64,000 bases of DNA from Desulfosudaceae bacterium. Its GTDB lineage: Bacteria > Desulfobacterota > Desulfobacteria > Desulfobacterales > Desulfosudaceae. The translations under genes were made by a program, and so were the position numbers. Of this stretch, positions 47,436 to 64,000 are shown one piece after another. Under the pieces are notes generated by a model. The model saw only the letters and a program-made list of their open reading frames with translations, searched no databases and was not told where the DNA came from. The stretch covers positions 1,344,001 through 1,408,000 of the forward strand of contig CAXXDV010000003.1 in assembly GCA_963674745.2 (NCBI GenBank). Direction: 5' to 3'. Position 1 is the first letter of the stretch; every line of letters starts with the position of its first letter.

Positions 47436-49517
47436 TTATTTCTCCTGCTTTTTATTTTTCATTTTTTCAATTTCTTCGGCAATGGCCGCCGGCACCTGCT
47501 GGTAAGCCATAAACTCCATGGCGAATTGTGCCTGTCCCTGGGTAGATGACCGCAGAACGTTTGAGAAACCGAACATTTCAGCCAACGGTACCTGGGCTTC
47601 AATCGCACAGGAAACGCCTTCGTCCTGGGTACCGACAATGATACCGCGCCGCTGGTTTAACAGCTTCATTACGCCGCCCTGAAATTCCGGCGGGGTTTCA
47701 ACCGTTACTTTCATTATGGGTTCATGAATAATCGGACCGGCCTTTCTGTAAGCTTCGAGAAAGGCGCCTCGGGCCGCGGCCTCAAAAGCCATTTCCGATG
47801 AATCAACCGAATGAAAGGCGCCGTCATTGATTTCAATTTTGACATCCACCACCGGGAATTCCAGCCAGGGCCCCTTATCCATGCACTTTGAAAAGCTTTT
47901 TTCACAGGATGGAATATATTGGGTCGGTATGGCACCCCCGGTTATTTTGTTTTCAAACACGAAACCCTCTCCGGGAGCGGGTTCCATGTATCCCGCGACG
48001 CGCCCGAACTGACCTGCCCCACCCGTCTGTTTTTTATGGGTATAATTAAATTCAACCCGGCGGGTGATTGTTTCCCGGTAAGCCACCTGGGGGCTACCGA
48101 TGGAGATGGCGGCGTCATATTCACGGCGCATACGTTCCAGATAGACATCCAAATGCAGTTCGCCCATACCCTGGATAATTGTTTCGTTGGTCTCTTTGTC
48201 CACAAACGTTTGAAAGGTCGGATCTTCCCTGGTAAACCGGCCGATGGCTTTGGACATGGCGATTTCCGACTTGTTGTCCTTGGGCTTGATGGCCAGAGAG
48301 ACGACCGGATCGGGCACGAAAATAGATGTCATCGTCAGCCTTAAGCCGTCACTGGTAAACGTGTCGCCGGAAGCACAATCGATCCCGAACAAAGCGCCGA
48401 TACCGCCGGCCGATATTCGTTCGATATCTTCCATCTGGTCGGCATGCATGCGTACCAGCCGGCCGATGCGGACTTTCTTACCCGTTCTGACATTGATGAC
48501 GTTATCCCCTTTTGATAAGGTTCCCTGGTATACGCGCACATAGGTCAACTGACCGTAACGCCCGTCTTCCAGTTTAAACGCCAGGGCGACGACGGGCTGG
48601 CCCGGGTCGTGGGACAGGGTCACCTGCGACTGATCATTATCCAGGTCAATAGCCGTGTTCTGTGCGTCTTCAGGGGCCGGCATATAAGTGATAATCGCGT
48701 CCAGCAGGGGTTGTACACCCTTATTTTTGTAAGCCGATCCCACGAAAACCGGCGTCAATTCCCGGGCAAAAGCGCCCTTCCGGATGGCTTCAGCCAGCAT
48801 CGCTTCGGTAATTTCCGTTTCTTCCAGAACGGCATCGGTCAGTTCTTCCGAAAAGGCTGATGCGGCATCGATCAGCACTTCACGCTGTTCTGCCGCCCGA
48901 TCTTTAAGGTCATCCGGAATTTCAGTGGTTTTGATTGTCTCACCGTTGTCACCCTCGAAATAAACGGCTTTCATGGTTACCAGGTCCACAACGCCATTAA
49001 AATCCGCTTCCAGGCCAATGGGAATCTGTATCAGCACGGCATTGTGGCCGAGTTTATCTTTGAGTTGTCGGGTTACGCGAAAGGGATCGGCCCCGCTGCG
49101 GTCACATTTATTGACAAAGGCCAGGCAGGGAACCTTATACCGCTTCATCTGCCGGTCCACGGTAATCGACTGGGATTGGACCCCGCCCACGGCGCACAAG
49201 ACCAGGACGGCACTGTCCAGGACCCGAAGTGACCGCTCAACTTCAATAGTAAAATCCACATGGCCCGGTGTGTCGATAATATTGACGCTATACCCCTTCC
49301 ACTCACAAAAGGTCGCCGCCGAGGCGATGGTAATCCCCCGCTCTTTTTCAAGCTCCATGAAATCCATGGTCGCACCCACGCCGTCTTTTCCCTTAACGTC
49401 ATGGATAGAATGAATCCGTTGGGTATAGAACAGTATCCGTTCGGTCAGTGTGGTTTTTCCCGAATCAATATGGGCGCTGATGCCGATGTTTCTCAGTTTC
49501 TGTTTTGCAGGTTTCAT
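47436..49517 (-). CDS. fusA: Elongation factor G
   Basis: [40 protein letters not shown]. Confidence 0.97.
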
Positions 49518-49847
49518 TTTTCAGTAATACCCTATTTTAATAATCTTTCATCAATCTCTTGGATTAAAACAATAAAACGGTAAAAGCCGGTTTATGAGTC
49601 GCGCTCCGGGTGTCATACGGATAACTTAAGCAGCATGATTACAGAAAACAGTTCAGGGATACTTAGTCTTTTCCATTCCCGAAAAAATCTGTTGTATATA
49701 TCAGGTTGTTTTTCATGGTGCAAGAGAAAAGATGTGAACACAAGATAATTATCGTTCGCCTCAAGAGCGATCACAGATCCCCTTAAATCGCCGACTGTTT
49801 CCTCCGCCTCTCTGGTTACACCTGATAAATGTCATCCCAAAGCCACT

Positions 49848-49906
49848 TGACAACATGTGGTACCCTCAAAAATATTGACACACAAGATGCTCTTGCTATA
49901 TATAAT
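49848..49906 (+). promoter_or_regulatory. Putative promoter region of the radical SAM operon with two NrdR-box-like sites
   Basis: TTGACA 49875-49880 and TATATATAAT 49897-49906; TGACAACATGTGGTAC (49848) and ACACAAGATGCTCTTG (49880), 32 bp apart. Confidence 0.35.
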
Positions 49907-49932
49907 ACCCATAAAAGCAGATTCTTACATAA

Positions 49933-51300
49933 ATGCAGCCTCTTCCTCCACATATGCATGTCTACATCATACCCTTCCAGGATAAGTTTGTCGTCTACAG
50001 ACCTTTAAAAAGATTAGCCTTTATTGCTAATTCGGCCATGGTTAATCTTATTGCGAAGATACAGGAGAAGTCACATTTTAAGGGCCTGCCGACGCACAGT
50101 GAAGCCATGGCCTTTCTCGATGCCGTCGGTTTTTTTGAACCCGACCCCCGGCCTACCCAACCGCCGCCAGTTCAAGAACCGTATTTACCGACAGTCGCGG
50201 TCGTGTTTTTAACCACTGACTGTAATTGTAAATGTGTTTATTGTTATGCTTCAGCAGGCGGTGTGCCGGCCACGGAAACGCTTCCCGTCAGGCTGGGATA
50301 TCGCACCATTGATGTTGTCTGTGAAAATGCCCTGCTGACCGGAAAAAACAAATTCACGTTGAGCTTTCATGGCGGCGGCGAACCGACGATGGCGTCGAAA
50401 AAAATGAAACAGCTGATAAATTACGCCAGAAAAAAAGAAGTACCCTGTCATGCCAATCTTACAACCAACGGTTGCTGGTCTGCGGCTGACAGGGAGTGGA
50501 TTCTGAACAATTTTGACGATGTCAGCCTCTCTTTTGACGGTTTGCGTGAAATTCAGGACCGCCAGCGTCCGCTTGCAAGCGGTAGAGGAACATATGACCT
50601 GGTTATGGCGAGCATTACGGCCATGGACCAGCGGCAGTTGTCTTATGGTATCCGAATGACGGTAACAGAGGACTCTGTCGATCAATTGCCGGAAAACATG
50701 AAATTCCTTTGCAGCAGCACGGATTGCCGGGTTTTCCAGGTGGAGCCGGCGTCCAATCATGGACGGGCAATGCAGGGCCATAATGCCCTGACCCAATACG
50801 ATCGATTTGCCCGGGCCTTTCTTAAAGCATATGATATTGCCGTGGCTGCGGGCAGGCACATGTATTATTCAGGCGCAAGGCCCTGGGTGATTACCCCACG
50901 TTTTTGTCAGGCCCCGGAAAATGCTTTGATTGTGGGTACGGACGGGTTTCTCACGGCATGTTATGAAGTGTGCAGTAGAGACCACGAACTGGCGGGGCTG
51001 TTTTGCTTTGGTGATATCTCCGAAAACGGGATAATGTCCGTGCACGAAAAGACCCGGCAGGCGCTTTTTGAAAAAATTGAACAGCGAAAAAAACAGTGCC
51101 GGGACTGCTTTTGTTTCTGGCATTGTGCCGGAGACTGCCCGTCCAAGACAATGACGGCGGATGGCAGGGGGCACCTTCGGTTTGACCGACGGTGTGATTT
51201 GAACCGCCATATTACCCGGGAACTGATTATACGCAACATTACAAACGGTAACGGTATCTGGCAGGGGGCATCAGAAGAACAGATGCTTGTCGCCTGTTAG
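49933..51300 (+). CDS. Radical SAM/SPASM peptide/protein maturase with N-terminal RRE-like region
   Basis: CNCKCVYC, FHGGGEP, TTNG, SFDG; SPASM FCQA...DG.LTAC...CRDCFCFWHCAGDCP...RC. Confidence 0.92.
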   Translation: MQPLPPHMHVYIIPFQDKFVVYRPLKRLAFIANSAMVNLIAKIQEKSHFKGLPTHSEAMAFLDAVGFFEPDPRPTQPPPVQEPYLPTVAVVFLTTDCNCKCVYCYASAGGVPATETLPVRLGYRTIDVVCENALLTGKNKFTLSFHGGGEPTMASKKMKQLINYARKKEVPCHANLTTNGCWSAADREWILNNFDDVSLSFDGLREIQDRQRPLASGRGTYDLVMASITAMDQRQLSYGIRMTVTEDSVDQLPENMKFLCSSTDCRVFQVEPASNHGRAMQGHNALTQYDRFARAFLKAYDIAVAAGRHMYYSGARPWVITPRFCQAPENALIVGTDGFLTACYEVCSRDHELAGLFCFGDISENGIMSVHEKTRQALFEKIEQRKKQCRDCFCFWHCAGDCPSKTMTADGRGHLRFDRRCDLNRHITRELIIRNITNGNGIWQGASEEQMLVAC

Positions 51301-51327
51301 GGCAGTTAACACCAAAAGGAATCGACG

Positions 51328-51780
51328 ATGGAAAAGAGAAGGAATCCTGGCGCTGCGACAACATCCCGCCGGAACTTTTTCCGTCGTTTTTTTACTGAAA
51401 CGATAAGCCTTATTGAGGAAGCCAGGGGAACCCCCCAGCTCAACCTGAATGATATCGCAGCGCTCCCGGATGAGATTTTCGGTAGTATCATTCCGGTTTT
51501 CAGTGAACATACCCGGTATCGGATTGAAGGTGATCGGCTACTCATCGTCGATGAAAAGAGCGCTATTTTCAGAAAAGCCTATCAATTTACGCCTCGAGAG
51601 CTGTATGTTTTGAATCAATTTGACGGACATAATACATTAAATTCAATTGTTTATGTAATTATAAACCAGTTTGACCAAGATGCCGAAGCAGCGTTTCAGC
51701 AGGTAAAAAATCTGTTCTGCACCATGGCCGGATACGCGGTATGCCATCCGCTGCATGAAACACCGGAGCAGCAAAAATGA
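51328..51780 (+). CDS. PqqD/RRE-like protein with an N-terminal twin-arginine motif
   Basis: C-terminal VLNQFDGHNTLNSIV..I...F.....AFQQVKNLF..M matches the PqqD pattern; N-terminal SRRNFF has no hydrophobic h-region. Confidence 0.65.
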   Translation: MEKRRNPGAATTSRRNFFRRFFTETISLIEEARGTPQLNLNDIAALPDEIFGSIIPVFSEHTRYRIEGDRLLIVDEKSAIFRKAYQFTPRELYVLNQFDGHNTLNSIVYVIINQFDQDAEAAFQQVKNLFCTMAGYAVCHPLHETPEQQK

Positions 51781-53162
51781 ACCGGGCAGATATTGCCGAT
51801 ATTTACGCCATTTCCTTACCAGAAGAGAAGTTTCTGCTATATTCCCCGTTAAGGGGTTTTTCCGCGCTCGTAAACCGGAAAGCCCTTGATGAATCCGCCC
51901 GGTTTGTAACGGGAAAACCATGCCGAAACAGGGGGGCGTCACCGCTTGACGCTATTTTCAATGCGCTTTCAACGCCTGCTTTACCCCCTCCATTTGAACC
52001 GGATAAGCTGCTGGCTCCTTTTTTTCTGGGTATTATTCCCACGCGGGCCTGTAACATGTCCTGCCGTTATTGCGATTTCGGGGACCAATCGCCGGGTTCG
52101 CAGTCCATGGATTTACGGACTGCTGTAGCTGCTGTGGACTGGATGGCGGACCATGTTTATCGGACAGGCCGGGATAAACTGGAAATCCACTTTTTCGGCG
52201 GAGAGCCGTTTGTCGCCCCAGATGTCGTGGACGCCGCCGTTTACCGGGCGCGGGCTGTTGCCGGGGAAAAAGGGATACCCCTTCATCTGGAAGTGTCCAC
52301 CAACGGTCTATTTGATGAGAACAGGGCCGTTTTTGTGGGGGATTACTTTAATTCAGCTGTTATTTCCCTGGATGGATTCCGGGAAACACATGACCGTCAC
52401 CGCCCCCTAGACGGGAGCAGAGGTAGTTTTGATGGTGTCGTAGAGTCAATTCGGCGGCTTTCGATGACGCCGGCAGAGGTTTGTCTGCGGTGTTGTATAT
52501 CGCATATAAACGTGGACAGGATGGAAGCGATTGCCCGGTGGTTCTGTGAAGAATTAAAACCATCTGTCGTAAACTTTGAAATCGTAAGTTCAAATTCAAA
52601 ATCAGATGCGGCGGGATTGTTTCCGCCCGACCCGTATCGTTTTGCCGGTAATTGCGTTCGGGCCTGTCGTCTTGTCCGACAATTCGGGATTCAAGCGGTT
52701 TACGCGTCGGCATCTATTGATACCGTGCGTCGAAGTTTTTGTCCCATGGGAAAGGATACCTTGATCGTTTCTCCCGATGGACGGATCAGCAGTTGTTATC
52801 TGCCGGACAGGGACTGGAAGAAAAAGGGACTGGATCTTGATGTGGGACGTCTGAGAACGGATGGTTCAATGGATATTGACATGGCTGCAATCCAGCGTCT
52901 GCGCCGGATAACCGCCGATAAGCCCGGCTGTGAAAAATGCTTTTGCAAATGGACTTGCGCCGGAGGCTGTCATGTCAGGCAATACGATCAGGCAGCTGTT
53001 TCTACAAAAAATGATTTTTGTGTTCAGACGCGCCTTATTACCGCCTGTTCTCTGCTGGACAACCTTGGATTCCGCGATCTGGCCGATTCGCTTCTGGCGG
53101 ATATGGACGCGATGGAAACTCTGGCGTTGAATCCATCGGATTATTTGGTACAATTCACATGA
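51777..53162 (+). CDS. Radical SAM/SPASM peptide/protein maturase with N-terminal RRE-like region
   Basis: CNMSCRYC, FFGGEP, STNG, ISLDG; SPASM FCPMG...PDG.ISSC...CEKCFCKWTCAGGCH...FC; ATGA overlap with the upstream gene. Confidence 0.92.
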   Translation: MNRADIADIYAISLPEEKFLLYSPLRGFSALVNRKALDESARFVTGKPCRNRGASPLDAIFNALSTPALPPPFEPDKLLAPFFLGIIPTRACNMSCRYCDFGDQSPGSQSMDLRTAVAAVDWMADHVYRTGRDKLEIHFFGGEPFVAPDVVDAAVYRARAVAGEKGIPLHLEVSTNGLFDENRAVFVGDYFNSAVISLDGFRETHDRHRPLDGSRGSFDGVVESIRRLSMTPAEVCLRCCISHINVDRMEAIARWFCEELKPSVVNFEIVSSNSKSDAAGLFPPDPYRFAGNCVRACRLVRQFGIQAVYASASIDTVRRSFCPMGKDTLIVSPDGRISSCYLPDRDWKKKGLDLDVGRLRTDGSMDIDMAAIQRLRRITADKPGCEKCFCKWTCAGGCHVRQYDQAAVSTKNDFCVQTRLITACSLLDNLGFRDLADSLLADMDAMETLALNPSDYLVQFT

Positions 53163-53196
53163 TGTATGGAAATTAAACCATAACGAAAGAGGCCAT

Positions 53197-54822
53197 ATGG
53201 ATGACTCTAGAAAAGATGATCGCTTGAAGCAAGTGCCCGAGAATCCGGATGAAAAACCTGAGGTGTACGCGGTCTCAATGAAAAAAAAGAGGGTTTCATT
53301 AAGCCGTCGTGCTTTTTTGGGCAGTATCGGTACCGGCGCGCTGCTGACCGCCTGTGCTGAACTAAATCCTCAAAAAAACGGATGTGTCGACAAAACAGCC
53401 GGCCGGCCGGGGGGTGTTTCACAATTACCGTCGGAACCGGTAAAAGAAGTGTATGAGTGGTGCGAAAATTTTAATACCCATTCAAATTCCGTCAATGCCC
53501 TGGCTGTCAGCCCGAATGGCCGGATGCTGGTGTCGGGAAGCGCCGACACAACGATCAAATTATGGTCTCTCCCCGGGGGAAAGCTCCTGAAAATCTTAAA
53601 GGGGCATTCAAATGTTGTAAATACGGTAGCCGTCAGTCCGGACGGCAAGCTGCTGGCTTCCGGAAGCGGCGGTAAGACTGTCAGGCTGTGGTCTCTTAAA
53701 AATGGCCGGGGGCTGCTTTCTTTGAAAGGGCATTCAGCGTTTGTCAAGTCTGTTGCCTTCAGCCCGGATGGCCGGCTGCTGGCTTCCGGAAGCGGAGACA
53801 AAACCATTAAGTTGTGGTCTCTGCCGGAGGGGAAACTGCTGAAAACCCTGACGGGACATTCGAGTTATGTGTATGCGGTTGCCTTCAGCCCGGACGGTAA
53901 ATTTCTAATATCCGGAAGCGCTGACAAAACCATCCGGTTGTGGTCTTTGCCGGACGCAATGCTGTCACAAACCCTGACAGGGCATTCCGACTATGTCAAC
54001 TCACTGGTTGTCGGTTCGGACAGCCGGCTCCTGATATCGGGAAGCTGTGACAGAACGATTAAACTGTGGTCTTTGCCGGACGGGGGGCTGTTGCAAACCC
54101 TGGCAGGTCATTCCGGCTGGATCAATACTTTAGCGATCAGCCTGTGCGGACATCTGCTGGCGTCGGGAAGTGCTGATAAAACGGTAAGAATATGGTCCCT
54201 GCCGGAGGGTAAACCGCTTCTGGTGATGATGGGCCAGGATTTGCCGATAAAATCCGTGGTAATCAACCCGGAAGGGAATTTGTTAATATCGGCCGGTAGT
54301 GACAAAACCATTACCGTATGGACGCTTCCGGATGGATCCCCCAGTTGGTGCTTTTCCGATCCTGCCTTAACCGCGCCGCAGGAGATGAAAACCTTTCGTC
54401 AGATGGGATTTTGCACCCGGATCCTGCCCTGTGGCGCACAGATACCGCCGGGGGCTGTTTGCACTTGTAATTGTGTGGCAGCGGCCTCTATCCACAAGGG
54501 GCCTGAAACGATCTGTATTTGTGATACCATCGCCGTCCCGGCCTTCAAAACGCTGCCGGGAAATACGGTGTGTGTCTGCAACACAATTTTAGTCGGCACG
54601 GGTTGTATCCCCAAGAATCATGAACGGCACATGTCAGGGAAGTCCTGTACCTGCAATACTATTTGTACCTGTGATACGGTGTCGAGGGCCGGTCTTCCTT
54701 GTTCCCGTTATGCTGTAGGCGGCCACACAAAACAGACGACCGGAACGACTTGTACCTGCGATACCATCTGCACCTGCGATACGGTTTCAACAGGAGGCGG
54801 GCATTACTGGTATCCCACTTAA
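53197..54822 (+). CDS. Tat-exported lipoprotein with 7 WD40 repeats and a Cys-rich repeat tail (putative modification substrate)
   Basis: SRRAFL Tat motif (aa 36-41), LTA-C lipobox (Cys53), seven 42-aa WD40 repeats, 7x C-x-C-[DN]-[TC]-[IV], C-terminus GGGHYWYPT. Confidence 0.88.
   Translation: MDDSRKDDRLKQVPENPDEKPEVYAVSMKKKRVSLSRRAFLGSIGTGALLTACAELNPQKNGCVDKTAGRPGGVSQLPSEPVKEVYEWCENFNTHSNSVNALAVSPNGRMLVSGSADTTIKLWSLPGGKLLKILKGHSNVVNTVAVSPDGKLLASGSGGKTVRLWSLKNGRGLLSLKGHSAFVKSVAFSPDGRLLASGSGDKTIKLWSLPEGKLLKTLTGHSSYVYAVAFSPDGKFLISGSADKTIRLWSLPDAMLSQTLTGHSDYVNSLVVGSDSRLLISGSCDRTIKLWSLPDGGLLQTLAGHSGWINTLAISLCGHLLASGSADKTVRIWSLPEGKPLLVMMGQDLPIKSVVINPEGNLLISAGSDKTITVWTLPDGSPSWCFSDPALTAPQEMKTFRQMGFCTRILPCGAQIPPGAVCTCNCVAAASIHKGPETICICDTIAVPAFKTLPGNTVCVCNTILVGTGCIPKNHERHMSGKSCTCNTICTCDTVSRAGLPCSRYAVGGHTKQTTGTTCTCDTICTCDTVSTGGGHYWYPT
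53473..54327 (+). repeat. Seven tandem 126-bp WD40 coding repeats
   Basis: Repeated (G)HS..V..VA.SPDG.LL.SGS.DKT(I/V).LWSL with a 42-aa period. Confidence 0.9.
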
Positions 54823-54834
54823 GCCGGACGGCAG

Positions 54835-57672
54835 ATGAATATTTTAACTCCTGCGAATAAAAACGACATAACCGACGATTTCACGGCAGCGGACACTTTT
54901 TCTGTCGGCAATTTTATGCTTAAGGGGAAGGTCCATCCGAAACTGCCTCTGTTTGAACTGCGTTCGGGCGGTCAAAGCGTATTGTATGCGCCCGGAAAAG
55001 TTGCCGTTGTAGATTATCCGAATGCCGAAGCGATCTGCCGGGCATGGTCCGGAGACGGTGTCCTGTCTCCGGGCAGCATTTCCGGTCAGACGGCCCGATG
55101 GCTTGAAACGCATGCGGAAAATGCCCTGAAAAAATGGAAGGCTGTTACCGGCATGCCTTTCCAGCCCGAATGCCTGACCATTTACCCGGGTATTCAGTGC
55201 AACCTGAAATGTGGTTATTGTTACGCGCGGAACCGTGACGTTGATGAAACAGCGGGAAGCAGGTCAGGCCGTCCGGTTATGGCTGATTCGGTTGTGGCTT
55301 CCGCTGCCGCGATTGTAGCGAAAAACTGCGCCGACAAAGGACTTCCGTTTCATCTGGTTCTGCACGGCGGTGGAGAGCCCTCATACTACTTTGATCAGGT
55401 GCGCCGTTATACGGCGATAACCCGCCAGGCTGCCCGGCAGCTCGGGCTGGACTGGTTCGGGTATATCGCCACCAATGGGGTAATGCCTGAAAAAAATGCC
55501 CGGTGGCTGGCTGAAAATTTTACGCGGATCGGACTGTCGTGCGACGGCCCTCCAGATATTCAGGACAGGCAGCGGCCGCTTAAAACTGGCGGCAGAACCT
55601 CGCCACAGGTAAAACAGACCGCGCGTATTTTAACTGAACATGGCGCGGATATGGTTGTCCGCGCCACCCTGACACCCTGGTCTTTTTCTCGTCAGACTGA
55701 AATTGTCACCTATTTTTATGAGCATTTAAATCCATCCGCCATACGTTTTGAACCGGCTTTTCGACTTCGGGATAATGGGCATCCGGGATTCACCGCAGAC
55801 GATGCGTCAATTTTTGTCGAGCATTTTCTGGCTGCCAGGAAGACAGCAGAATCCATGGGATGCCATCTTTCCTTATCCGGTATCCGGCCCGAAGAGATCC
55901 ACGGCCCTTTTTGCGATGTCCTGCGGAATGTCCTGCGTCTGGGACCGGACGGTTCGGCTACGGCCTGTTTTCTGATATCAGATGAAACGGTACCTGTCAG
56001 TTCGCCTTTTTTGATTGGCCGGGCGGACCCGGACACGGGTGATTTTATTTTAGACACCAAAAAGATAGAGGCATTCCGGCGTTCCGTCGCCGTCATACCT
56101 GCCGAATGTGAACAATGCATCAATATCTGTCATTGCGCCCGGGGATGTCCGGACCGGTGTCCGGTTTTAACCGGGTCGCCCGTTGATCCGGAGAATAAAA
56201 ATAATAATAATTTTCTGTGCCGGTTGTATCAAAAACTGGCGCCGGCCCTCATTATGGACGCAGCGGACAGGTTGATAAACAGAGAACAAAAAAAGGCGGT
56301 GACGATACTACCCGATATCGGCATCTCCGATGAAGCCGGCCTTAACCTGAATGATCTGCCGGCTGCCGTAAACAGGGAAGAGATCAGAAAACAGTATGAC
56401 GCGGTGGGCGGTACCTATGATATTACAGCCGGCCGCTTGCCGGAGCCTGCCTGGCGGAAAAAGGGGTTTACCTTCAATGGCCCTGATGCCTGGCATTATC
56501 TGCGTCGGGTTTTACCGGATACGGATCACGCCCGACCGGTGTCTATTTATTTCCATGTCCCGTTTTGTGAACACCGGTGTGCCTTTTGTGACTGCTATGC
56601 CTTTCCCTTCGGGAAAAAAAGGTCCGTAAAAGAAGAGGCCTTTTGCCGGGCGCTTGTAGCTGAAATGCGTTTTTGGTCGGATATTTACCCGATCAGCCGA
56701 CGCCGGGTTACGACCGTCCATTTCGGCGGAGGGACCCCGGGGTGTTTGAATGCTCCTGTGTTTGATCGAATTCTGACGGAATGCCGCGATCTTTTTAAAG
56801 TCCATGAGCAGACGGAATGGGCGCTGGAAACAACCGTTTCTCACATCAGGCAGGAAGATTTGAACCGGTTGGGAAAATTGGGCTTTTCCCGGCTGCATGT
56901 TGGGGTTCAGACCTTAAATGAGGATTTAAGGCAATCCATTGGGAGAAGGACTTCAGCCAAGGATGCTGTCTTCAGGCTGAAAAAGGCCATGGGGGCAGGT
57001 TTTGTTGTTTCCGTAGATATTTTATATGGCCTCCCCGGACAGCGCTTATCGGATGTGCTGAATACCCTGTCGATCCTGATTGACATGGAGATTCACGGTC
57101 TGTCGCTTTACCGTTTCAATGTATCAAAACGGAATCGATGGTATATTAAGCGTTGCCGGGAGTTTAACCCGGATCCGCGTCGTGATTACTTGATGTTTCA
57201 GGCCGCGGAGCAAATGCTGACCAAAGCCGGTTATCGGAAAAACCATTTTGCGCATTTTGCAAAACAAGCGGATCGCAACCTGTATTTCACCTGTCCGCTG
57301 AGGGGGGAAGACCTGCTGGCCATGGGGCCGACGGCAGACGGTTTTTTCGGTAATTATCGATACCGTAACGCGGAATATGCAAGGTATATGAACCAGTTGC
57401 AAAACAAATCAGGCATGCCGGTGCTGCAAGGCTGTCTTGAGGAATCAGACCTTGAGGTCAGGGCGCGTCCGGCGATCCTCGACATTATGGGCAGCCATAT
57501 CCGGAGAAGCGTTCATGAACATCTGGGTATCGACAGTCTGATCAAGAAATGGGAAGACTGTCTGCTGATCGAAAATTTATCCGGCGGAAATGATTTTGCG
57601 TTAACACCGAACGGCTCCTGGTTTGTTAATCAAATGATTGCTGATGTTTTACATGATCTTGAAAGCAGGTGA
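54835..57672 (+). CDS. Double radical SAM protein: radical SAM/SPASM fused to a HemN-like (class C) radical SAM domain
   Basis: CNLKCGYC (aa 122), LHGGGEP, SPASM CEQCINICHCARGCP; second domain IYFHVPFCEHRCAFC (Cys578), VHFGGGTP, RLHVGVQT, VDILYGLPGQ. Confidence 0.9.
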   Translation: MNILTPANKNDITDDFTAADTFSVGNFMLKGKVHPKLPLFELRSGGQSVLYAPGKVAVVDYPNAEAICRAWSGDGVLSPGSISGQTARWLETHAENALKKWKAVTGMPFQPECLTIYPGIQCNLKCGYCYARNRDVDETAGSRSGRPVMADSVVASAAAIVAKNCADKGLPFHLVLHGGGEPSYYFDQVRRYTAITRQAARQLGLDWFGYIATNGVMPEKNARWLAENFTRIGLSCDGPPDIQDRQRPLKTGGRTSPQVKQTARILTEHGADMVVRATLTPWSFSRQTEIVTYFYEHLNPSAIRFEPAFRLRDNGHPGFTADDASIFVEHFLAARKTAESMGCHLSLSGIRPEEIHGPFCDVLRNVLRLGPDGSATACFLISDETVPVSSPFLIGRADPDTGDFILDTKKIEAFRRSVAVIPAECEQCINICHCARGCPDRCPVLTGSPVDPENKNNNNFLCRLYQKLAPALIMDAADRLINREQKKAVTILPDIGISDEAGLNLNDLPAAVNREEIRKQYDAVGGTYDITAGRLPEPAWRKKGFTFNGPDAWHYLRRVLPDTDHARPVSIYFHVPFCEHRCAFCDCYAFPFGKKRSVKEEAFCRALVAEMRFWSDIYPISRRRVTTVHFGGGTPGCLNAPVFDRILTECRDLFKVHEQTEWALETTVSHIRQEDLNRLGKLGFSRLHVGVQTLNEDLRQSIGRRTSAKDAVFRLKKAMGAGFVVSVDILYGLPGQRLSDVLNTLSILIDMEIHGLSLYRFNVSKRNRWYIKRCREFNPDPRRDYLMFQAAEQMLTKAGYRKNHFAHFAKQADRNLYFTCPLRGEDLLAMGPTADGFFGNYRYRNAEYARYMNQLQNKSGMPVLQGCLEESDLEVRARPAILDIMGSHIRRSVHEHLGIDSLIKKWEDCLLIENLSGGNDFALTPNGSWFVNQMIADVLHDLESR

Positions 57673-57946
57673 AGATGGTTCACTTTGATCCTGATGTCGT
57701 CTGGTCTGTTGACTGCCGCGGTTTGTCGCTGGTTCACCGTAAAACAGGTGACCGCGCTTGCCTGGTTTATCCCCAAGCCGCTTTATGGGATCTGTTGAGC
57801 AGAGAGGTGGAAATGACGAGGATCATCCGGATCATGACGGCTCTGACGGCGTTGAGGACCCGGCTGTCCGGCTATGGTGCCGCCGGACCGTCCAGGGCTG
57901 GATTGACGCGGGCTGGATGCTCGAAGACGGGGAAACCGCATCATGA
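57669..57946 (+). pseudogene. PqqD/RRE-like gene split by a 1-base frameshift near 57846-57850 (pseudogene or assembly error)
   Basis: First frame gives ..YPQAALWDLLSR..IIRIMTALT; the -1 frame continues GVEDPAVRLWCRRTVQGWIDAGWM..TGA, overlapping the next ATG (ATGA 57943-57946); joined length ~92 aa. Confidence 0.65.
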
Positions 57947-59940
57947 CGAATCTTTCCCTTACCTCTGAATGTAACCAGAATTGTTCATACTGCTTTGCCG
58001 GGAATATAACGGAAGTCAGCCGTTTTCCCCGCCGGGAGTATGATGGGTTCCTCGCGTTTTTGAGGCGGTCAGGGATCAAGCAGGTCCGGTTGCTGGGCGG
58101 TGAACCCACGCTTCATCCGGACTTTATTTTTTTTGTAGAAGAGGCTTTCCGTCAGGGCTTTCATGTGCTGGTATTTTCAAACGGCATGATGCCTGAAAGC
58201 GCCGTAAAATGTCTTGAAATCCTGCCCCCGGACAAGCTACTGGTTCTGGTAAATACCACCCCTTCCCGGCGTTGGAACATGAACCTACGTGGTCGCCGGA
58301 TCGAGATATTGAAACGTTTGAATCAGAGGGTAATGATCGGTTTAACCATTCACACAACGAACCCTGATATTGATTCCATCTGTTCGTATATTGAAATATT
58401 GAATTTACGCCCCGCCATCCGCCTGGGTCTGGCCCATCCCTGCCCGGACAGCACCAATCAATGGTTGCCTCCCAAGCATTATTGTCTGGTCGGACAAATC
58501 ATAGCCGATTTTATCATTCGGCACCCGGATCTGTCGATCGAGTTTGATTGCGGCTTCGTGCCCTGCATGTTCCCGGACTGGTTTTTTTCACAGTCTGTTT
58601 TCAAACCGGAGGACATCGGGCGCCGCTGCGGGCCGATACCGGACATCTTACCCGATGGCTCAGTAGTGCACTGTTTTCCGTTACGTGCCATATCGAAACT
58701 GACACTGGATCAACTGGCCTGTGCCCGGGCGGCAGGAAAAGAATTGTCGCGAATGGTTGCACCGTATCAGCATACGGGTATTTTCCCGGAATGCGGCTGC
58801 TGTGAATATCGGACGGCGGATCAGTGCTCCGGCGGTTGTATTGCGGCAGCCGGCCGGCGCTTGAGAAGTTCGTCTCAATGCTTTTCTCTGTCAATTCCGC
58901 TCAGCACATCCCTTGCGTCGGATTTTACCGGCAATGAGCCGTCCCCCGGTAACGGGACGCTGGAAGATGTGAACGATGCCAGGGTGGACAAAGATTTCAT
59001 CATTCCGTATATCGATCAGCCACCGCGTTTCTGGGAGGAAATTTATAGCGCCTTTGGCCGGTTTATCAAAAAGGTGTATTGTCCCCTGCCCGGCAGTAAA
59101 ATCGGTTCCGGGCGTCCGCCTCAACCCGATGACCATTTACATCAATTTTTATGTTCCGGTTATTTTGAGACGGATATCCTTATCAACTCGCCTTTTGTTA
59201 AAGAACCGCTGGACGATTTTACAAGCCGTGTCATCAGGGAATTGAGGCTGTTTTCGGAGAAATACCCTTTATCGGGCGTGACGATTGCCAATCGTAAGGT
59301 CGGCAGACGGATCCGGGAGGTATTTCCTGACCTGACCCTGACGGCTTCGGTGTTGATGGATGTTTACGGGCCTGATCAGATAAAACGGATGGGGGATACT
59401 TTTGACTGCCTGGTTCCGTCCAGCAGGATTATGCGTAATATCAATGCCCTGATGCGGATCAGGCAGGCTTTTGCCGGGAAGATACGGTTGATCGCCAATG
59501 AAGCGTGCCTTCCGGGCTGCCCCTACCGTGATCAGCATTTTTACGAGATGAATTCCGACCGTTCGTACCCTGAATCGCTCTGTACCGACCTTCTCGAGGA
59601 AAAACCATGGCTGCGCTTAACCGGTGCCTGGGTTCTTCCGCAGCACCTGTCTTTTTTCGATACCATCTATGATGAACTCAAACTGGCGGGCCGCGTTACC
59701 TTAAAAGATCCGGCAAAGTATATGAAGGTGCTGAATGCTTATATTACCGGGACGCCGCTGACCCCGGATGAAATCGGCGGCGGGCCGGCGTCTGTCCTAG
59801 ACCCTGTTTATATTGATTCTGATTTTTATTTTTCCACGTTAAATTGTGATAAACAATGCCATCAATGCGATATCTGCAGCACATATTATGAAATGCAGAC
59901 CAATCCGGTAGAAAATGAAACAGAAAAAGTGCCTGTATGA
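57943..59940 (+). CDS. Radical SAM/SPASM domain fused to a peptidase U32-family domain
   Basis: CNQNCSYC, LLGGEPTLHP, FSNG, CGP..DILPDG.V.HCFP, CGCC...CSGGC; C-terminal IGSGR, ASV, ANEACLPGCP...H, LKLAGR, CDKQCHQCDIC. Confidence 0.85.
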   Translation: MTNLSLTSECNQNCSYCFAGNITEVSRFPRREYDGFLAFLRRSGIKQVRLLGGEPTLHPDFIFFVEEAFRQGFHVLVFSNGMMPESAVKCLEILPPDKLLVLVNTTPSRRWNMNLRGRRIEILKRLNQRVMIGLTIHTTNPDIDSICSYIEILNLRPAIRLGLAHPCPDSTNQWLPPKHYCLVGQIIADFIIRHPDLSIEFDCGFVPCMFPDWFFSQSVFKPEDIGRRCGPIPDILPDGSVVHCFPLRAISKLTLDQLACARAAGKELSRMVAPYQHTGIFPECGCCEYRTADQCSGGCIAAAGRRLRSSSQCFSLSIPLSTSLASDFTGNEPSPGNGTLEDVNDARVDKDFIIPYIDQPPRFWEEIYSAFGRFIKKVYCPLPGSKIGSGRPPQPDDHLHQFLCSGYFETDILINSPFVKEPLDDFTSRVIRELRLFSEKYPLSGVTIANRKVGRRIREVFPDLTLTASVLMDVYGPDQIKRMGDTFDCLVPSSRIMRNINALMRIRQAFAGKIRLIANEACLPGCPYRDQHFYEMNSDRSYPESLCTDLLEEKPWLRLTGAWVLPQHLSFFDTIYDELKLAGRVTLKDPAKYMKVLNAYITGTPLTPDEIGGGPASVLDPVYIDSDFYFSTLNCDKQCHQCDICSTYYEMQTNPVENETEKVPV

Positions 59941-60049
59941 AAACAGAGGGGGTGATAATGACAGATAGTGCCCTTTTATTTTTCTGGACAAGAATGATCG
60001 TCCGGTGAATGGATCGGAAATGCCTTGCAAAGGATGCTTTTACAGTTTG

Positions 60050-60475
60050 TTATCCAAATATATCGATTTTACTTTCACCGCTCATATATCTGAAATAGTC
60101 AGACAAAATACGCCCGTGATCAAAAGCCAGGGTTTCCGGCAAGGTGTCTTTGGTATAAACAACGGCCCTGGCGGCATCGTCTGCAGCAATGGGCGTACCT
60201 TCGGCTTCGGCGATAAAAACGACGCTGGCCGTATGGTGACGGGGGTCACGGGCTGGATCGGAATAAACGTGAAACTGCTCTTTCAGGCTCACATTCAGCC
60301 CGGTTTCTTCAGCCGCCTCGCGAACAGCAGCCCTTTCCACCGATTCACCGTAATCGACAAACCCGCCCGGCAAAGCCCAGCCATAGGGCGGATTTTTGCG
60401 TTCAATCAGAATGATACCGCCATTGATTTGAATAATGATATCAACAGTCAAAAAGGGGTTGCGGGGATTGTTCAT
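60050..60475 (-). CDS. NUDIX hydrolase
   Basis: Nudix box [35 protein letters not shown]. Confidence 0.93.
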
Positions 60476-60538
60476 ATACGGATTCTTCCCTTTCAAAGCC
60501 AGGCCGGTGTTTTTGTTATTTAAGAGGCTGGGTTGTTC

Positions 60539-60862
60539 AAGGTGTTTATGTGGTTAAGTGTTTATGTGATTAAGGTATCAGGGTGTTACGTGTTATTTAT
60601 TTTTGGTTAAGGTGTTGTCGCTCGCGAATGTTGTAGGGGCGGCCCCCTGTGGCCGCCCGGCAAAAGGGCAACCACAGGGGGTTGCCCCTACAGGAGTTCG
60701 GGGCCCTCGCCTATCATCACTCAACCTCCGAACCTACAACCCTCGCAATGACGCAATCAACTAAAACTCTAACACTTTAAAACCTAAAACTTAAGTCTTT
60801 AATGCCTCAACAAACCAATCAACCACGATATCCACTTAATCACTTAATCACATAAACACCTT
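60539..60862. repeat. Composite palindromic element: octamer-repeat outer inverted repeats around a GTAG-type REP doublet
   Basis: Outer inverted repeat 60541-60568 / 60833-60860 (25/28 match); inner TGTAGGGGCGGCCCCCTGTGGCCGCCC (60632-60658) and GGGCAACCACAGGGGGTTGCCCCTACA (60666-60692). Confidence 0.8.
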
Positions 60863-61124
60863 CTAAGTAACTTAACAAAAAAACGCCATATGTTGTGTTA
60901 TATACACGCCGAAGCACAACCCACGAAACAACCCAGTGTAAGAAAGTTATTTGTAGGTTTGGTTCCGGGCCGTGCCCGGTTGGAACGCTAATCACCCGCT
61001 CACCAAGTCATTATTTTAAACCCGTTGATTTCAATTGCTTTTTGTAAATACAGCGTTATATAGAGAGTATCCGAAATAAACGCCTTTCTAATTTGAGCAA
61101 AGAGGTTTTTTGATGGGAGACTGG

Positions 61125-61529
61125 ATGTCCGAGTTGTTTCGACTGAAATCAGTCTTTAAACCGTTGGTTATTGTTATGCTGGGGGGCGGTCTGGGCGCGG
61201 CCAGCCGATATCTGGTCGGTTTATTGAGCGCCAGGATATGGGGGACTCATTTTCCCTGGGGAACGCTTATCGTTAATCTGGCGGGTTGTTTTCTGATCGG
61301 TTTTTTTTTCGCCCTTTCGGACCGGGCCCGACTGCTGACACCGGAAATGCGCCTTCTGTTGATCACCGGATTTCTGGGCGCACTGACCACATTTTCTACG
61401 TTTTCTCTTGAAACCACCAACGCCGCTCGAGCCGGCATGACGCTTCAGCCGGTTGTTAATATTCTGGTCAACAACCTGGGCGGTATCGGCTTGACCTTTC
61501 TGGGGTTATGGCTGGGAAGCCTTAAATAG
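61125..61529 (+). CDS. crcB: Fluoride efflux channel Fluc/CrcB
   Basis: GGGLGAASRY, GTLIVNLAGCF, TGFLGALTTFSTF. Confidence 0.95.
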   Translation: MSELFRLKSVFKPLVIVMLGGGLGAASRYLVGLLSARIWGTHFPWGTLIVNLAGCFLIGFFFALSDRARLLTPEMRLLLITGFLGALTTFSTFSLETTNAARAGMTLQPVVNILVNNLGGIGLTFLGLWLGSLK

Positions 61530-61537
61530 GGGGGGGA

Positions 61538-62827
61538 ATGCTTAATTACAAAGCGATCGAGATTTTTACCAGCGAAGAAGCACGTTACCGGAAAAAGCCG
61601 TTAGTCGATACGGTCCTGCAATATATCAAAGACTTGAAGATTGCCGCCCGCTGTATCGTCACCCGGGGTATTGCCGGTTGTTACGAAAGCGGTGAATTGA
61701 CGACTACCCGCCTGGAAATCCTCTCTTTCAACCTGCCGGTCCGAATCTATATCGTTCTTCCAGACGCTGAAGCCGAACGGGTGCTCGACGGACTGAACGA
61801 GATGATCACCGACGGCATCGTGGCGCTGCATGATCTGAACGTACTCTGTCACCGGACGCAAAATGCCTTTTTTCCCAGGCAGCTCCTGGTTCGGGACGTC
61901 ATGACCCGCGATCCGGAATGTGTGACAGCCGGCACCGCTTTGAGCGATGTGGTTCGCCTGCTTTTATCCTCGATTTTTTCAGGGTTGCCCGTAGTCGATG
62001 AGTTCAACCGTCCCGTGGGTGTCATCACCCAGGGGGATTTGATTAAAAAAGGCGGCCTTCCCCTGCGTTTGGGGCTGCTGGCAGAGTCCGATCAGAACCG
62101 CCTGGCGTCTGTTTTAAACCGGCTTTCTTCCCGAACGGCCAGCGAAGTCATGACGACACCGGCGGTGATGATTGCCGCCGACCAGCCATTAACCAAAGCA
62201 GTGGAACTGATGTTGAACAAAGGCGTTAAACGCCTGCCGGTAGTCGATAAGAACGGCGGAATCTCAGGCATGCTGTCGCGGCTGGATATCTTCCGGACGG
62301 TCATGCGGGAGGCGCCGGACTGGGACACATTCAAGGCGCAAAAAATAGAAGTAAAACAGCTAAAACGCGTAGGGGACATTTTACACCGGGACGTGCACGC
62401 CGTCTCACCGGAGACGACGATTGATGAAGTTATCCGGTTTATCGATGACAACGCCATTCAACGGGTGGCCGTTGTTGACACCGGGGGAAAACTGCTGGGG
62501 TTGATTTCGGATCGTGATTTGCTGCGATACTTCAAGCCGGAGCAGGAAGGTGTCTGGCGTATATTGGCAAAGATGAAAAACCCCTTCAAGCAGGAGACTT
62601 CCGATTCCGGAGATATTCAAAAGCGCCTGTCCGAGATAACCGCAGGAGCGGTCATGACAACAACGGTGATTACGGTTGATGAGGACATGAAAATCGAAAC
62701 GGCCATCGGTTTGATGCTTGACAAGGGGCTAAAACGGCTTCCCGTAATTAACCGGGATGGCCGGTTCCAGGGCATGATCAGTCGGGACGCGCTGTTGCGG
62801 ACGGGGTATGGAAGCCAGGCGTCTTGA
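61538..62827 (+). CDS. DUF190 (PII-like) domain plus two CBS-pair protein
   Basis: N-terminal IFTSE...VTRGIAG...LS.NLPV.I; four CBS domains (VRDVMT, LPVVD, G.ISRxD); directly after crcB. Confidence 0.85.
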   Translation: MLNYKAIEIFTSEEARYRKKPLVDTVLQYIKDLKIAARCIVTRGIAGCYESGELTTTRLEILSFNLPVRIYIVLPDAEAERVLDGLNEMITDGIVALHDLNVLCHRTQNAFFPRQLLVRDVMTRDPECVTAGTALSDVVRLLLSSIFSGLPVVDEFNRPVGVITQGDLIKKGGLPLRLGLLAESDQNRLASVLNRLSSRTASEVMTTPAVMIAADQPLTKAVELMLNKGVKRLPVVDKNGGISGMLSRLDIFRTVMREAPDWDTFKAQKIEVKQLKRVGDILHRDVHAVSPETTIDEVIRFIDDNAIQRVAVVDTGGKLLGLISDRDLLRYFKPEQEGVWRILAKMKNPFKQETSDSGDIQKRLSEITAGAVMTTTVITVDEDMKIETAIGLMLDKGLKRLPVINRDGRFQGMISRDALLRTGYGSQAS

Positions 62828-62842
62828 ACGCCTGATGTCTGT

Positions 62843-63529
62843 TTATACCCCTCCCCTGTTCAAGGCATCCAGCAAAGGTGCGATATCTTCTTTATATTCC
62901 GGTTCAATCAGTAAATTTCTGGCCGGGAAATTGGGGATAAACGGTTGACCATGCACCGACAAGTACCCCTCTCTGTATCGCATTCTGTTTTCCGCCGATT
63001 GCATGAAAATCAGCACATCTGTCATGTTGCCGGTAAAACCGTATGAATCAATATGTTCAATATACTGCAACATGACATGATTAACCGATACGGTCAGCGG
63101 TGACATGCGCGCGTATTCCCCTCGCCGGCAAGTCTTCTGGGAAACCAGGCAACGGCAGGCAAAAGGACGCACATCATATATCGGGCACTGGTTCTCGCTC
63201 AACAAAGGGCAATCTCCCCAGGCCGGATCAATAACCTCTTCCGGCACTTCCTCCTCTTTGACAATCATTTCCGTCAACCGGTTAAACGTGAACTGAGGGA
63301 TAAAACGCTTTCTTAATAAGTATGCTTGCAACTGATCCGGAACAGCCACCCGGCCTGCCCGTTCCAATGCCTCGACAATCAGAAAGCCCTCCAGAGAAGT
63401 TATGGTTACATTAATGGTGCAGCAGGTGGCGCACCCGGCCCGGCAAGCCAGGTCAAGCGAGTCGACATGCTCATCATACACTTTGCAAATATGATTATAA
63501 GCAGTTGTTTTATCATCGATATTAAACAT
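62843..63529 (-). CDS. YkgJ-family cysteine-cluster protein
   Basis: CRAGCATCC, CPLL, CPIYDVRPFACR. Confidence 0.85.
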   Translation of the reverse strand: MFNIDDKTTAYNHICKVYDEHVDSLDLACRAGCATCCTINVTITSLEGFLIVEALERAGRVAVPDQLQAYLLRKRFIPQFTFNRLTEMIVKEEEVPEEVIDPAWGDCPLLSENQCPIYDVRPFACRCLVSQKTCRRGEYARMSPLTVSVNHVMLQYIEHIDSYGFTGNMTDVLIFMQSAENRMRYREGYLSVHGQPFIPNFPARNLLIEPEYKEDIAPLLDALNRGGV

Positions 63530-64000
63530 AATTTATGCACCTGGCCGTTTCGCATTTGTCGATTTTCCCCGTTATCTCCAATCGGAAAAGCATCTACTTA
63601 AATTTCCGGAATTTCACGAACGGCAAAGCGACCTGGTTCCTTCAAAACTTGCGCGCCGTAATCTTGAATTTTATGCCTCCATGAAGCTTGTTTTTCTTAC
63701 TTCATACCATGAGGCACACCCCCCATTCAATACTATTACGCCTCAAGTTGATAGAATAAGCATTGACACTTAAAAGCCGGGTTGGTAAAATAATCGAATA
63801 AAAAAAGGAACTTGATGCCACACTGAGGCACATATCACCATAATTACAAAATTTTATGAGGGCCACATGCTTGGAAAAATGCTGAAACTGCCTCAGAAAC
63901 CCCATCAACCGGAGTAATTTGTGACAAAAAACAATAAATTCAAGATGCTTATAATATTTCTGCTGGTCTTCCCCCTTTTTCCCGTCGACGTCACCGCCAA

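Follow-up and report, generated by a model that had tools for sequence, protein, structure and literature searches.

A radical SAM/U32-type fusion protein as a candidate maturase of an exported protein tail in a Desulfosudaceae bacterium

The U32 proteins UbiU/UbiV (E. coli YhbU/YhbV, ubiquinone hydroxylation), RlhA (ho5C2501 in 23S rRNA) and TrhP (ho5U34 in tRNA) are iron-sulfur (Fe-S) proteins needed for the O2-independent hydroxylation of aromatic carbons (PMC10990095, PMC6747719, PMC5727448, PMC11574389, each cited here and below for the sections drawn on in this work). A [4Fe-4S] cluster and hydroxylation of this kind are known only for these proteins, in vivo. For ubiquinone at least, the oxygen comes from prephenate, and in those sections of PMC10990095 and PMC11574389 no oxidant is established that would remove two electrons from the ring before hydroxylation. 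Here we analyse a 64,000-nucleotide stretch of the genome of a Desulfosudaceae bacterium (contig CAXXDV010000003.1; the window, whose positions are used throughout), and within it gene G, which encodes a radical S-adenosylmethionine (rSAM) half followed by a U32-type domain and closes a seven-gene operon. As a whole, the best explanation, which we put forward tentatively, is that G is a maturase of the C-terminal tail of protein D, encoded in the same operon, and that its U32 half hydroxylates without O2.

Like UbiU/UbiV, G has a homologous TIM barrel with a KxxGR motif and belongs to an anaerobic setting; its CX3C aligns with CxxPC, a third Cys lies at the spacing of UbiU C193-C232, and UbiV provides a precedent for a cluster ligand outside the core motif (PMC6747719). 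In contrast to them, G has no CX6C, carries a terminal four-Cys motif, is fused or adjacent to rSAM enzymes and falls below the Pfam threshold, and its context is a protein-tail cassette with no ubi genes or SCP2 protein. RlhA and TrhP belong to the same family and, in its need for C-terminal Cys beyond the U32 motif (C580, C611), RlhA resembles G (PMC5727448); however, both act on RNA, and where G has a Cys knuckle they have DUF3656 or other C-terminal domains; RlhA C169/C176 have no counterpart in G. Mk0906 (PDB 5d88), the sole solved U32 structure, is the best structural match to the G domain, and its function is unknown.

A second group of related systems is formed by enzymes that modify proteins and peptides. 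The Qhp system (QhpC gamma subunit, QhpD rSAM/SPASM enzyme, QhpG hydroxylase) is similar by analogy only, with an exported protein, Cys beside Asp/Asn for rSAM/SPASM cross-linking and an aromatic residue needing oxygenation; QhpG is an O2-dependent flavoprotein. Unlike Qhp, the G cassette has no heme subunit or dehydrogenase genes, and its tail motif and enzymes differ. The PapB/CteB thioether synthases, PqqE/PqqD and MftC/MftB combine an rSAM/SPASM enzyme and a PqqD-like partner on a C-terminal core, as in the G cassette, but they are devoid of a U32 domain. The presumed substrates of the G cassette are exported proteins of full size, and many loci have more than one paralogue of them.

The two halves of gene G

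G almost certainly has a two-domain architecture, with an rSAM half and a U32-type half arranged as follows.

57943..59940, + strand: gene G, ATG start, 665 amino acids, an rSAM/SPASM-like + U32-type two-domain protein (open reading frame list, translation)
57943..58860, + strand: N-terminal rSAM/SPASM-like half, residues 1-306 (Pfam, family profile against PDB, Cys conservation)
57970-57993, + strand: CxxxCxxC, C10/C14/C17 (read from the sequence)
Between 58549 and 58839, + strand: eight auxiliary Cys of the N-terminal half (alignment rows)
58861..58989, + strand: variable linker, residues 307-349 (gapped, unconserved alignment columns)
58990..59937, + strand: C-terminal U32-type TIM-barrel domain, residues 350-665 (AlphaFold model, Foldseek, VIA, hhalign)
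59506..59583, + strand: retained U32 Cys, C522-x3-C526 and C547 (hhalign residue mapping; invariant in 37/37)
59680..59697, + strand: KLAGRV motif (K580, G583, R584), aligned with canonical KIEGR (hhalign; invariant in 58/58 rows)
59845..59877, + strand: C-terminal C-x3-C-x2-C-x2-C (C635, C639, C642, C645; invariant in 37/37), presumed to be an extra metal or Fe-S site

Homology of the C-terminal ~315 residues to the U32 family is supported by both structure and profile. An AlphaFold model of the domain built from 58 sequences (predicted local distance difference test, pLDDT, 93.6; predicted template modelling score, pTM, 0.91) found 5d88 first with Foldseek (E 7.3e-8, TM 0.65 on the target; generic TIM barrels from 1e-4) and again first with VIA (Z 18.3, root-mean-square deviation 2.8 A, 216/247 residues; runner-up Z 12.3), at 12-13% identity. 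Alignment by hhalign of the 58 family sequences with 28 canonical U32 proteins, drawn from 21 of 41 sampled genomes of the host phylum, gave Prob 92% (E 8.3e-8) in global and 91% (E 9.9e-7) in local mode, and 15 of the 46 conserved canonical columns are identical in G, including N415, S469, R495, C522, C526, K580, G583 and R584. The U32 likeness of residues 350-665 had been proposed in an earlier sequence-only reading of this DNA, and the structural and profile matches uphold it. The motifs quoted in that reading (ANEACLPGCP..H, LKLAGR and the terminal CDKQCHQCDIC) have key residues that are invariant among homologues, and are therefore real and under selection.

NCBIfam has no family match for the U32 domain of G, and PF01136, the U32 model of Pfam, weakly matches 38 of the 58 family members at E<=1 (best E 4.4e-4). 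A search with a profile limited to this domain yielded 2,052 cluster representatives at E<=1e-3, of which 1,228 reach E<=1e-10; its second tier of matches is a clade of stand-alone proteins of 310-370 residues. In this wider stand-alone clade, 34/37 proteins match PF01136 at E<=0.01 and 24/37 exceed its gathering score; one member, L118, has 26% identity to the G domain and reaches 28.4 bits. A quick tree, with long branches and hence approximate placement, splits the 28 canonical U32 proteins from the G type plus L118 with a support of 100 (SH-aLRT).

The gene of L118 (8785-9843, − strand, 353 amino acids) lies beside a MarR regulator, a xanthine-dehydrogenase-type molybdenum enzyme, a MatE exporter and a tannase/feruloyl esterase, a neighbourhood that suggests the metabolism of aromatic small molecules. 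Residues 350-665 of G also have relatives in viruses: the best match in the viral fold library BFVD is 'Peptidase [Escherichia phage OLB35]' (E 6.5e-11), and the nearest ESM Atlas clusters include phage-encoded U32-like proteins.

The conserved residues of the domain form a pattern of their own. Invariant in the G family are N519, E520, C522, C526, R529, H532, C547, K580, G583, R584 and C635/C639/C642/C645, with all seven Cys of the domain present in 37/37 rows. The wider stand-alone clade retains N519 and C522 in 30/30 sequences, C526 and H532 in 29/30, C547/K580/R584 in 30/30 and the terminal four Cys in 30/30. Judged by these alignments, the G domain belongs to a separate U32 subclade whose Cys pattern is 3+4. 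The first three Cys of the terminal motif show radical SAM spacing (CX3CX2C; read from the sequence).

Part of this pattern can be mapped onto canonical U32 proteins, whose alignment has Cys columns C173, C180, C196 and C200, plus C234 in 11/28 sequences. C522/C526 align with C196/C200, the CxxPC pair, while C547, whose neighbour L546 aligns to L233, occupies the C234 column of the canonical protein L081; this column lies 38 residues past C196, equal to the UbiU C193-C232 spacing. The four-Cys motif CX6CX15CX3/4C, present in 8/10 U32 families (PMC6747719), is represented in G by its CX3C half only, plus C547. Cluster-ligand Cys differ between UbiU (C169, C176, C193, C232) and UbiV (C39, C180, C193, C197) (PMC6747719), and RlhA requires C169 and C176 together with two C-terminal Cys, C580 and C611 (PMC5727448). 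The U32 half of G may bind Fe-S, and the Cys pattern of the whole protein would allow up to five cluster sites.

The N-terminal half is matched by Pfam Radical_SAM (PF04055) at residues 5-123 (E 8.3e-12, 46 bits against a cut-off of 29.5), and its 11 Cys, C10/C14/C17 and the eight auxiliary ones (C203, C208, C229, C244, C284, C287, C295, C299), are kept in 32/32 N-complete homologues, so that the N-terminal CxxxCxxC of the earlier reading stands. For its SPASM module the indications are mixed. The family profile of G spans the SPASM enzymes SuiB (5v1q, profile positions 8-308) and anSME (4k37, 8-306), SPASM parts included, and the eight Cys are invariant; however, the Pfam SPASM model (PF13186) has no match to G, for which reason we call this half SPASM-like. 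The spacing of the last four auxiliary Cys is C284-x2-C287-x7-C295-x3-C299, where the reference seven-Cys SPASM pattern includes CX2CX5CX3C, and the best PDB profile match of the N-terminal half is SkfB (E 3.1e-11).

Homologues of G of similar length number 215 at E<=1e-3. Between the halves, the previously noted linker is indeed a variable stretch (residues ~307-349), 19-87 residues long over 37 aligned rows, and residues 350-665 are better conserved than the N-terminal half. Stand-alone rSAM proteins resembling the N-terminal half of G (30-35% identity) were found by the host-phylum genome search in other contexts without cassette genes, and have no bearing on the U32 half. One of them (L114:3968-12105, 35% identity) lies inside a different cluster, like those of ribosomally synthesized and post-translationally modified peptides (RiPPs), with an HPr-kinase-like protein, an NTP_transf_5 protein, a B12-radical SAM protein, a transglutaminase-like protein and a CAAX protease.

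The operon and its presumed substrate

G is the final gene of a tight + strand block from 49933 to 59940, flanked by an EF-G gene and a NUDIX gene on the opposite strand. Besides G, the block encodes three rSAM/SPASM domains, one HemN-like rSAM domain, two PqqD-like proteins and a twin-arginine translocation (TAT) lipoprotein of the WD40 type, with 4-nucleotide overlaps at B/C, E/F and F/G.

49933..51300, + strand: gene A, rSAM/SPASM maturase, PapB/SCIFF-maturase-like (Pfam Radical_SAM + SPASM; NCBIfam PapB family 110 bits, below cut-off)
51328..51780, + strand: gene B, second PqqD-like small protein (weak ScmD match; 5/15 orthologues match PF05402 at E<=0.1, one above cut-off)
51777..53162, + strand: gene C, rSAM/SPASM maturase (Pfam Radical_SAM + SPASM; CteB 5wgg E 9.2e-19, residues 89-404)
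53197..54822, + strand: gene D, presumed substrate, WD40 protein (WD40 E 1.5e-82)
54835..57672, + strand: gene E, rSAM/SPASM (residues ~110-480) + HemN-like rSAM (residues ~555-940) (PDB profile matches)
56350-57672, + strand: HemN-like domain of E (window coordinates)
57669..57946, + strand: gene F, PqqD-like recognition protein, 4-nucleotide overlap with the start of G (9/20 family members match PF05402, best E 9.4e-6)

The tail of D (nucleotides 54676-54819) is made of CxC[D/N]T[I/V] repeats, a Gly-rich stretch and the end GGGHYWYPT, which gives the form (CxCxxx)n-Gly-HYWYPT. This end recurs beside relatives of the U32-type domain, which a scan of some 185,000 genomes, one for each species, detected in 100; 80 of the 100 loci were fetched, and all locus counts rest on these. 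Altogether 91 open reading frames, from 62 of the 80 loci, terminate in YWx[PY]x, and the 18 loci with no such frame are mostly short contigs. The residues at the last six positions of the 91 frames are:

Position -6: H 77, T 10
Position -5: Y 91
Position -4: W 91
Position -3: Y 65, H 11, R 11, F 4
Position -2: P 90
Position -1: N 67, T 13, C 6

Tail-bearing frames range from 73 to 1232 amino acids, and in most loci the precursor is a protein of full size, not a short peptide. Several loci contain 3-4 paralogous propeller precursors, and some precursors have no propeller, such as the short ones of 135-160 amino acids at L009, L019, L041, L052 and L079, which are without the WD40 propeller. Of these, 2/5 exceed the cut-off of the TAT-signal model; in NCBIfam the window tail has no family, and the five short precursors have only TAT-signal or sub-threshold repeat matches. 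D itself starts with an SRRAFL...LLTAC segment (signal region 53197-53370), which we take to be a TAT signal plus lipobox.

Many tails share an upstream LPCGSPIPPGAxCxCNCV box, which may be a recognition sequence for the PqqD-like proteins. Features typical of RiPP systems are present, namely PqqD-like elements (F 9/20, B 5/15) and an adjacent precursor with a conserved core (62/80 loci). We consider it likely, with good confidence, that the G cassette serves to mature the tail. That G belongs to a cassette for protein-tail maturation and not to the metabolism of RNA or quinones, in line with the protein substrate of the sequence-only reading, is supported by the PqqD-like partner, by D as its neighbour and by recurrence across phyla, while the assignment of this substrate to G in particular is one that we infer.

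The His at position -6 may be handled separately. Loci whose tails have no His(-6) are mostly without the HemN-like domain (6/7, compared with 11/55 of the His-bearing loci), a weak hint that the HemN-like enzyme may act on this His and leave the Tyr-Trp pair to others. The His-less loci are mostly Bacteroidales, so that few lineages and few independent events underlie the comparison, and the U32 domain is present in all of them by construction.

Of the other operon enzymes, C and the N-terminal half of E have CteB (5wgg) as their nearest relative of solved structure. E matches HemN (1olt, E 1.2e-26), the class-C methyltransferase NocN (9p2u, E 1.8e-20) and CteB (5wgg, E 1.6e-9), and reaches 185.7 bits against NCBIfam HutW, under the cut-off of 400. 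A and C match the QhpD model TIGR03906 weakly (73 and 79 bits, cut-off 453), and every NCBIfam match of the seven operon proteins lies far below the curated cut-offs.

F is translationally coupled to G through an ATGA overlap once a missing base is restored. Its frame is broken in the window, with the N-terminal part in the frame of 57669 and the C-terminal part in the open reading frame 57758..57946. In the contigs of runs X1 and X2, which stem from a single sample (probably the source), position 57851 is followed by an additional T; a relative in run X3 shows an additional C there. Hence the window has a one-base assembly error at this break, and F is an intact gene and no pseudogene.

Scans for promoters and terminators gave consensus matches only, among them TTGACA-18-AATATT at 49847-49876, 5' of gene A. 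Downstream of the operon, at 61110-62827, lies a CrcB fluoride-channel gene followed by a gene for a DUF190 + four-CBS protein; no Rfam family, the fluoride riboswitch included, was found at gathering score in 49000-64000.

Recurrence and fusion forms of the cassette

Judged by their record titles, the loci come from a dozen or more phylum-level groups, including Acidobacteriota, Desulfobacterota, Chloroflexota, Bacteroidota, Planctomycetota, Verrucomicrobiota, Armatimonadota, Actinomycetota, KSB1 and SAR324. Where at least 7 kb is available on each side (41 loci), the components were counted as C 40, N-terminal half of G 38, A 37, N-terminal half of E 33, C-terminal half of E 32, D 31, B 26 and F 11; these calls were made by BLAST, which under-detects the small proteins, and the best score decided between rSAM paralogues. 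Out of 301 host-phylum genomes sampled, the host alone has a full-length G match and a strong tail match (E 5.8e-12), and the cassette is therefore patchy and probably mobile. The profile used in this search included the N-terminal half and so gave generic radical SAM matches as well; from it, only the full-length match and L114-L118 were used.

The U32-type domain occurs in five forms in the 80 loci.

N-terminal half of G + U32: 38/80 loci
U32 alone: 38/80 loci
N-terminal half of G + U32 + HemN-like: 2/80 loci
N-terminal half of G + U32 + all of E (1582 amino acids): 1/80 loci
U32 + HemN-like: 1/80 loci

The fusion to a maturase is optional: the U32 domain is fused with the rSAM half in 38/80 loci (41 with the larger fusions) and alone in 38. 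The database holds 507 stand-alone forms of at most 364 residues, and on the tree the fused forms do not separate from the split ones, with at least three changes forced. In the wider clade the reverse order is also found, U32 followed by Radical_SAM (P0327) or by B12-rSAM (P0379), as well as fusions to TPR repeats or to a class-III aminotransferase (P0308, P0316, P0335, P0353 and P0378 are among the fusion set). That this U32 clade has been joined to rSAM enzymes repeatedly and independently is, on the comparative side, the strongest argument for a joint action of the two, with a partner that varies. No paper on a U32-rSAM fusion or on the tail system was found in the literature covered, which excluded subscription journals, and no curated family was found for the enzyme or the cassette.

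Proposed maturation chemistry and its alternatives

The previous results lead to a proposed mechanism in which G would be a two-domain Fe-S maturase working with F in the cytoplasm on the C-terminal tail of D. After cytoplasmic maturation, D would be exported by TAT, which fits the precursor signal. A, C and the N-terminal half of E would be thioether-synthase-like and the C-terminal half of E HemN/class-C-methyltransferase-like, with G acting beside them. Mechanistically, the rSAM half of G would abstract hydrogen and oxidise or cross-link the substrate, electrons leaving via the auxiliary clusters; the U32 half would then deliver oxygen without O2, with prephenate as donor as thought for UbiU/V, RlhA and TrhP. 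From its gene content the host looks anaerobic, in agreement with the sequence-only reading, and of the sulfate-reducer type: its genome, 99.96% complete, carries dsrA (621 bits) and yielded no heme-copper oxidase.

The oxygen target would probably be the invariant Tyr-Trp pair of the tail. Both Asp/Asn and the terminal aromatic rings had been suggested earlier, and Tyr-Trp is in our view the better guess, because only Tyr(-5)/Trp(-4) are invariant (91/91) and the U32 precedents are all aromatic. The Asp/Asn residues beside Cys are more naturally substrates of the three CteB/PapB-like thioether synthases.

On this analysis, oxygen insertion by the U32 half is possible but doubtful, and a number of points weigh against it. 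For no U32 protein has direct in vitro catalysis been demonstrated, according to the relevant section of PMC11574389. Pfam PF01136 (gathering score 22.4 bits) has no match to G even at E<=10, and the sequence profile of the domain finds 5d88 in the PDB only at E 0.43. The loop with the first two canonical Cys (CX6C) is deleted in G, which lacks counterparts of the Cys essential in RlhA (C169, C176) and of the corresponding UbiU ligands. About half of the loci encode the U32 domain separately, and at L024, L025, L046 and L069 the U32 gene stands by E or its C-terminal half with no rSAM of the G type in the fetched stretch, so that the rSAM half is no obligatory partner and the HemN-like domain is perhaps the closer one. 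An electron-relay or scaffold role, or some other chemistry, is nearly as likely as oxygen insertion.

In the first of these roles, which we regard as rather unlikely in itself, the U32 half would insert no oxygen and would serve as an Fe-S electron relay or scaffold for the rSAM domains of the cassette (its own N-terminal half and/or the HemN-like one), feeding or draining electrons or positioning the rigid Cys-rich tail. The seven invariant Cys, with the terminal C-x3-C-x2-C-x2-C among them, the promiscuous fusion of U32-type domains with different rSAM types and the loss of the CX6C pair, essential in RlhA, would all be consistent with such a role, and PMC10990095 suggests that U32 clusters perhaps serve electron transfer. 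However, the barrel residues common to canonical U32 proteins (N415, S469, R495, K580, R584) and the family-specific E520, R529 and H532 are invariant, a pattern that resembles a catalytic or ligand pocket, and SPASM domains already hold electron-relay clusters of their own. The U32 half could instead catalyse a different, undescribed reaction on the tail or on a small-molecule co-substrate, for example a lyase, dehydratase or decarboxylase step, or its own SAM-radical chemistry from the terminal CX3CX2C on a TIM barrel. Most U32 subfamilies are without known function (PMC10990095, PMC5727448), this clade has its own Cys signature with radical SAM spacing in the first three terminal Cys, and relatives are fused with TPR or aminotransferase domains. 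Such a reaction would have no precedent, though, since U32 functions are tied only to hydroxylations and a disputed collagenase activity, and no SAM-binding motifs were seen, with no test aimed at them; we judge it quite unlikely.

A true peptidase that trims or releases the modified tail appears very improbable. PrtC and HP0169 have been reported as collagenases (PMC5727448), and JGI labels some homologues 'collagenase-like PrtC family protease'; but the conserved motif lies at the extreme C-terminus, which leaves no follower peptide to remove, the precursors' own TAT/lipoprotein signals and folded propeller suggest that the whole protein is the product, and no catalytic protease residues are known for the U32 family. 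Least credible of all is that G has nothing to do with its neighbours and hydroxylates an RNA or a quinone, even though this is the sole demonstrated biology of the family (PMC10990095, PMC5727448, PMC11574389): the host has two canonical U32 genes elsewhere (318 and 182 bits), the U32 domain of G is found together with the tail cassette in 80 loci and in fusion with enzymes of that cassette, and F is a PqqD-like partner.

Tail maturation by G with O2-independent hydroxylation, our tentative explanation, would extend the range of the family. To our knowledge, U32 proteins are the sole enzymes thought to take hydroxyl oxygen from an organic donor (prephenate), and we know of U32 proteins tied only to RNA bases and ubiquinone. 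A U32 clade in a protein-tail cassette would point to proteins as a possible new substrate class, the repeated U32-rSAM fusion hints at the identity of the missing U32 oxidant, and one enzyme, one PqqD partner and one short tail would make a compact, soluble system, defined genetically, for reconstituting U32 chemistry. There is also a slim chance that the cassette builds, free of O2, an oxygenated and cross-linked aromatic centre from Tyr-Trp, which could be a quinone-type cofactor comparable to cysteine tryptophylquinone (CTQ) or tryptophan tryptophylquinone (TTQ). If so, G would be the first protein-directed oxygen-inserting enzyme of the U32 family, and its fused rSAM half would supply the strong one-electron oxidant lacking in the proposed prephenate-dependent U32 mechanism. 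The enzyme combines known kinds, U32 Fe-S proteins and radical SAM maturases of RiPP type, with a realistic chance of new protein chemistry.

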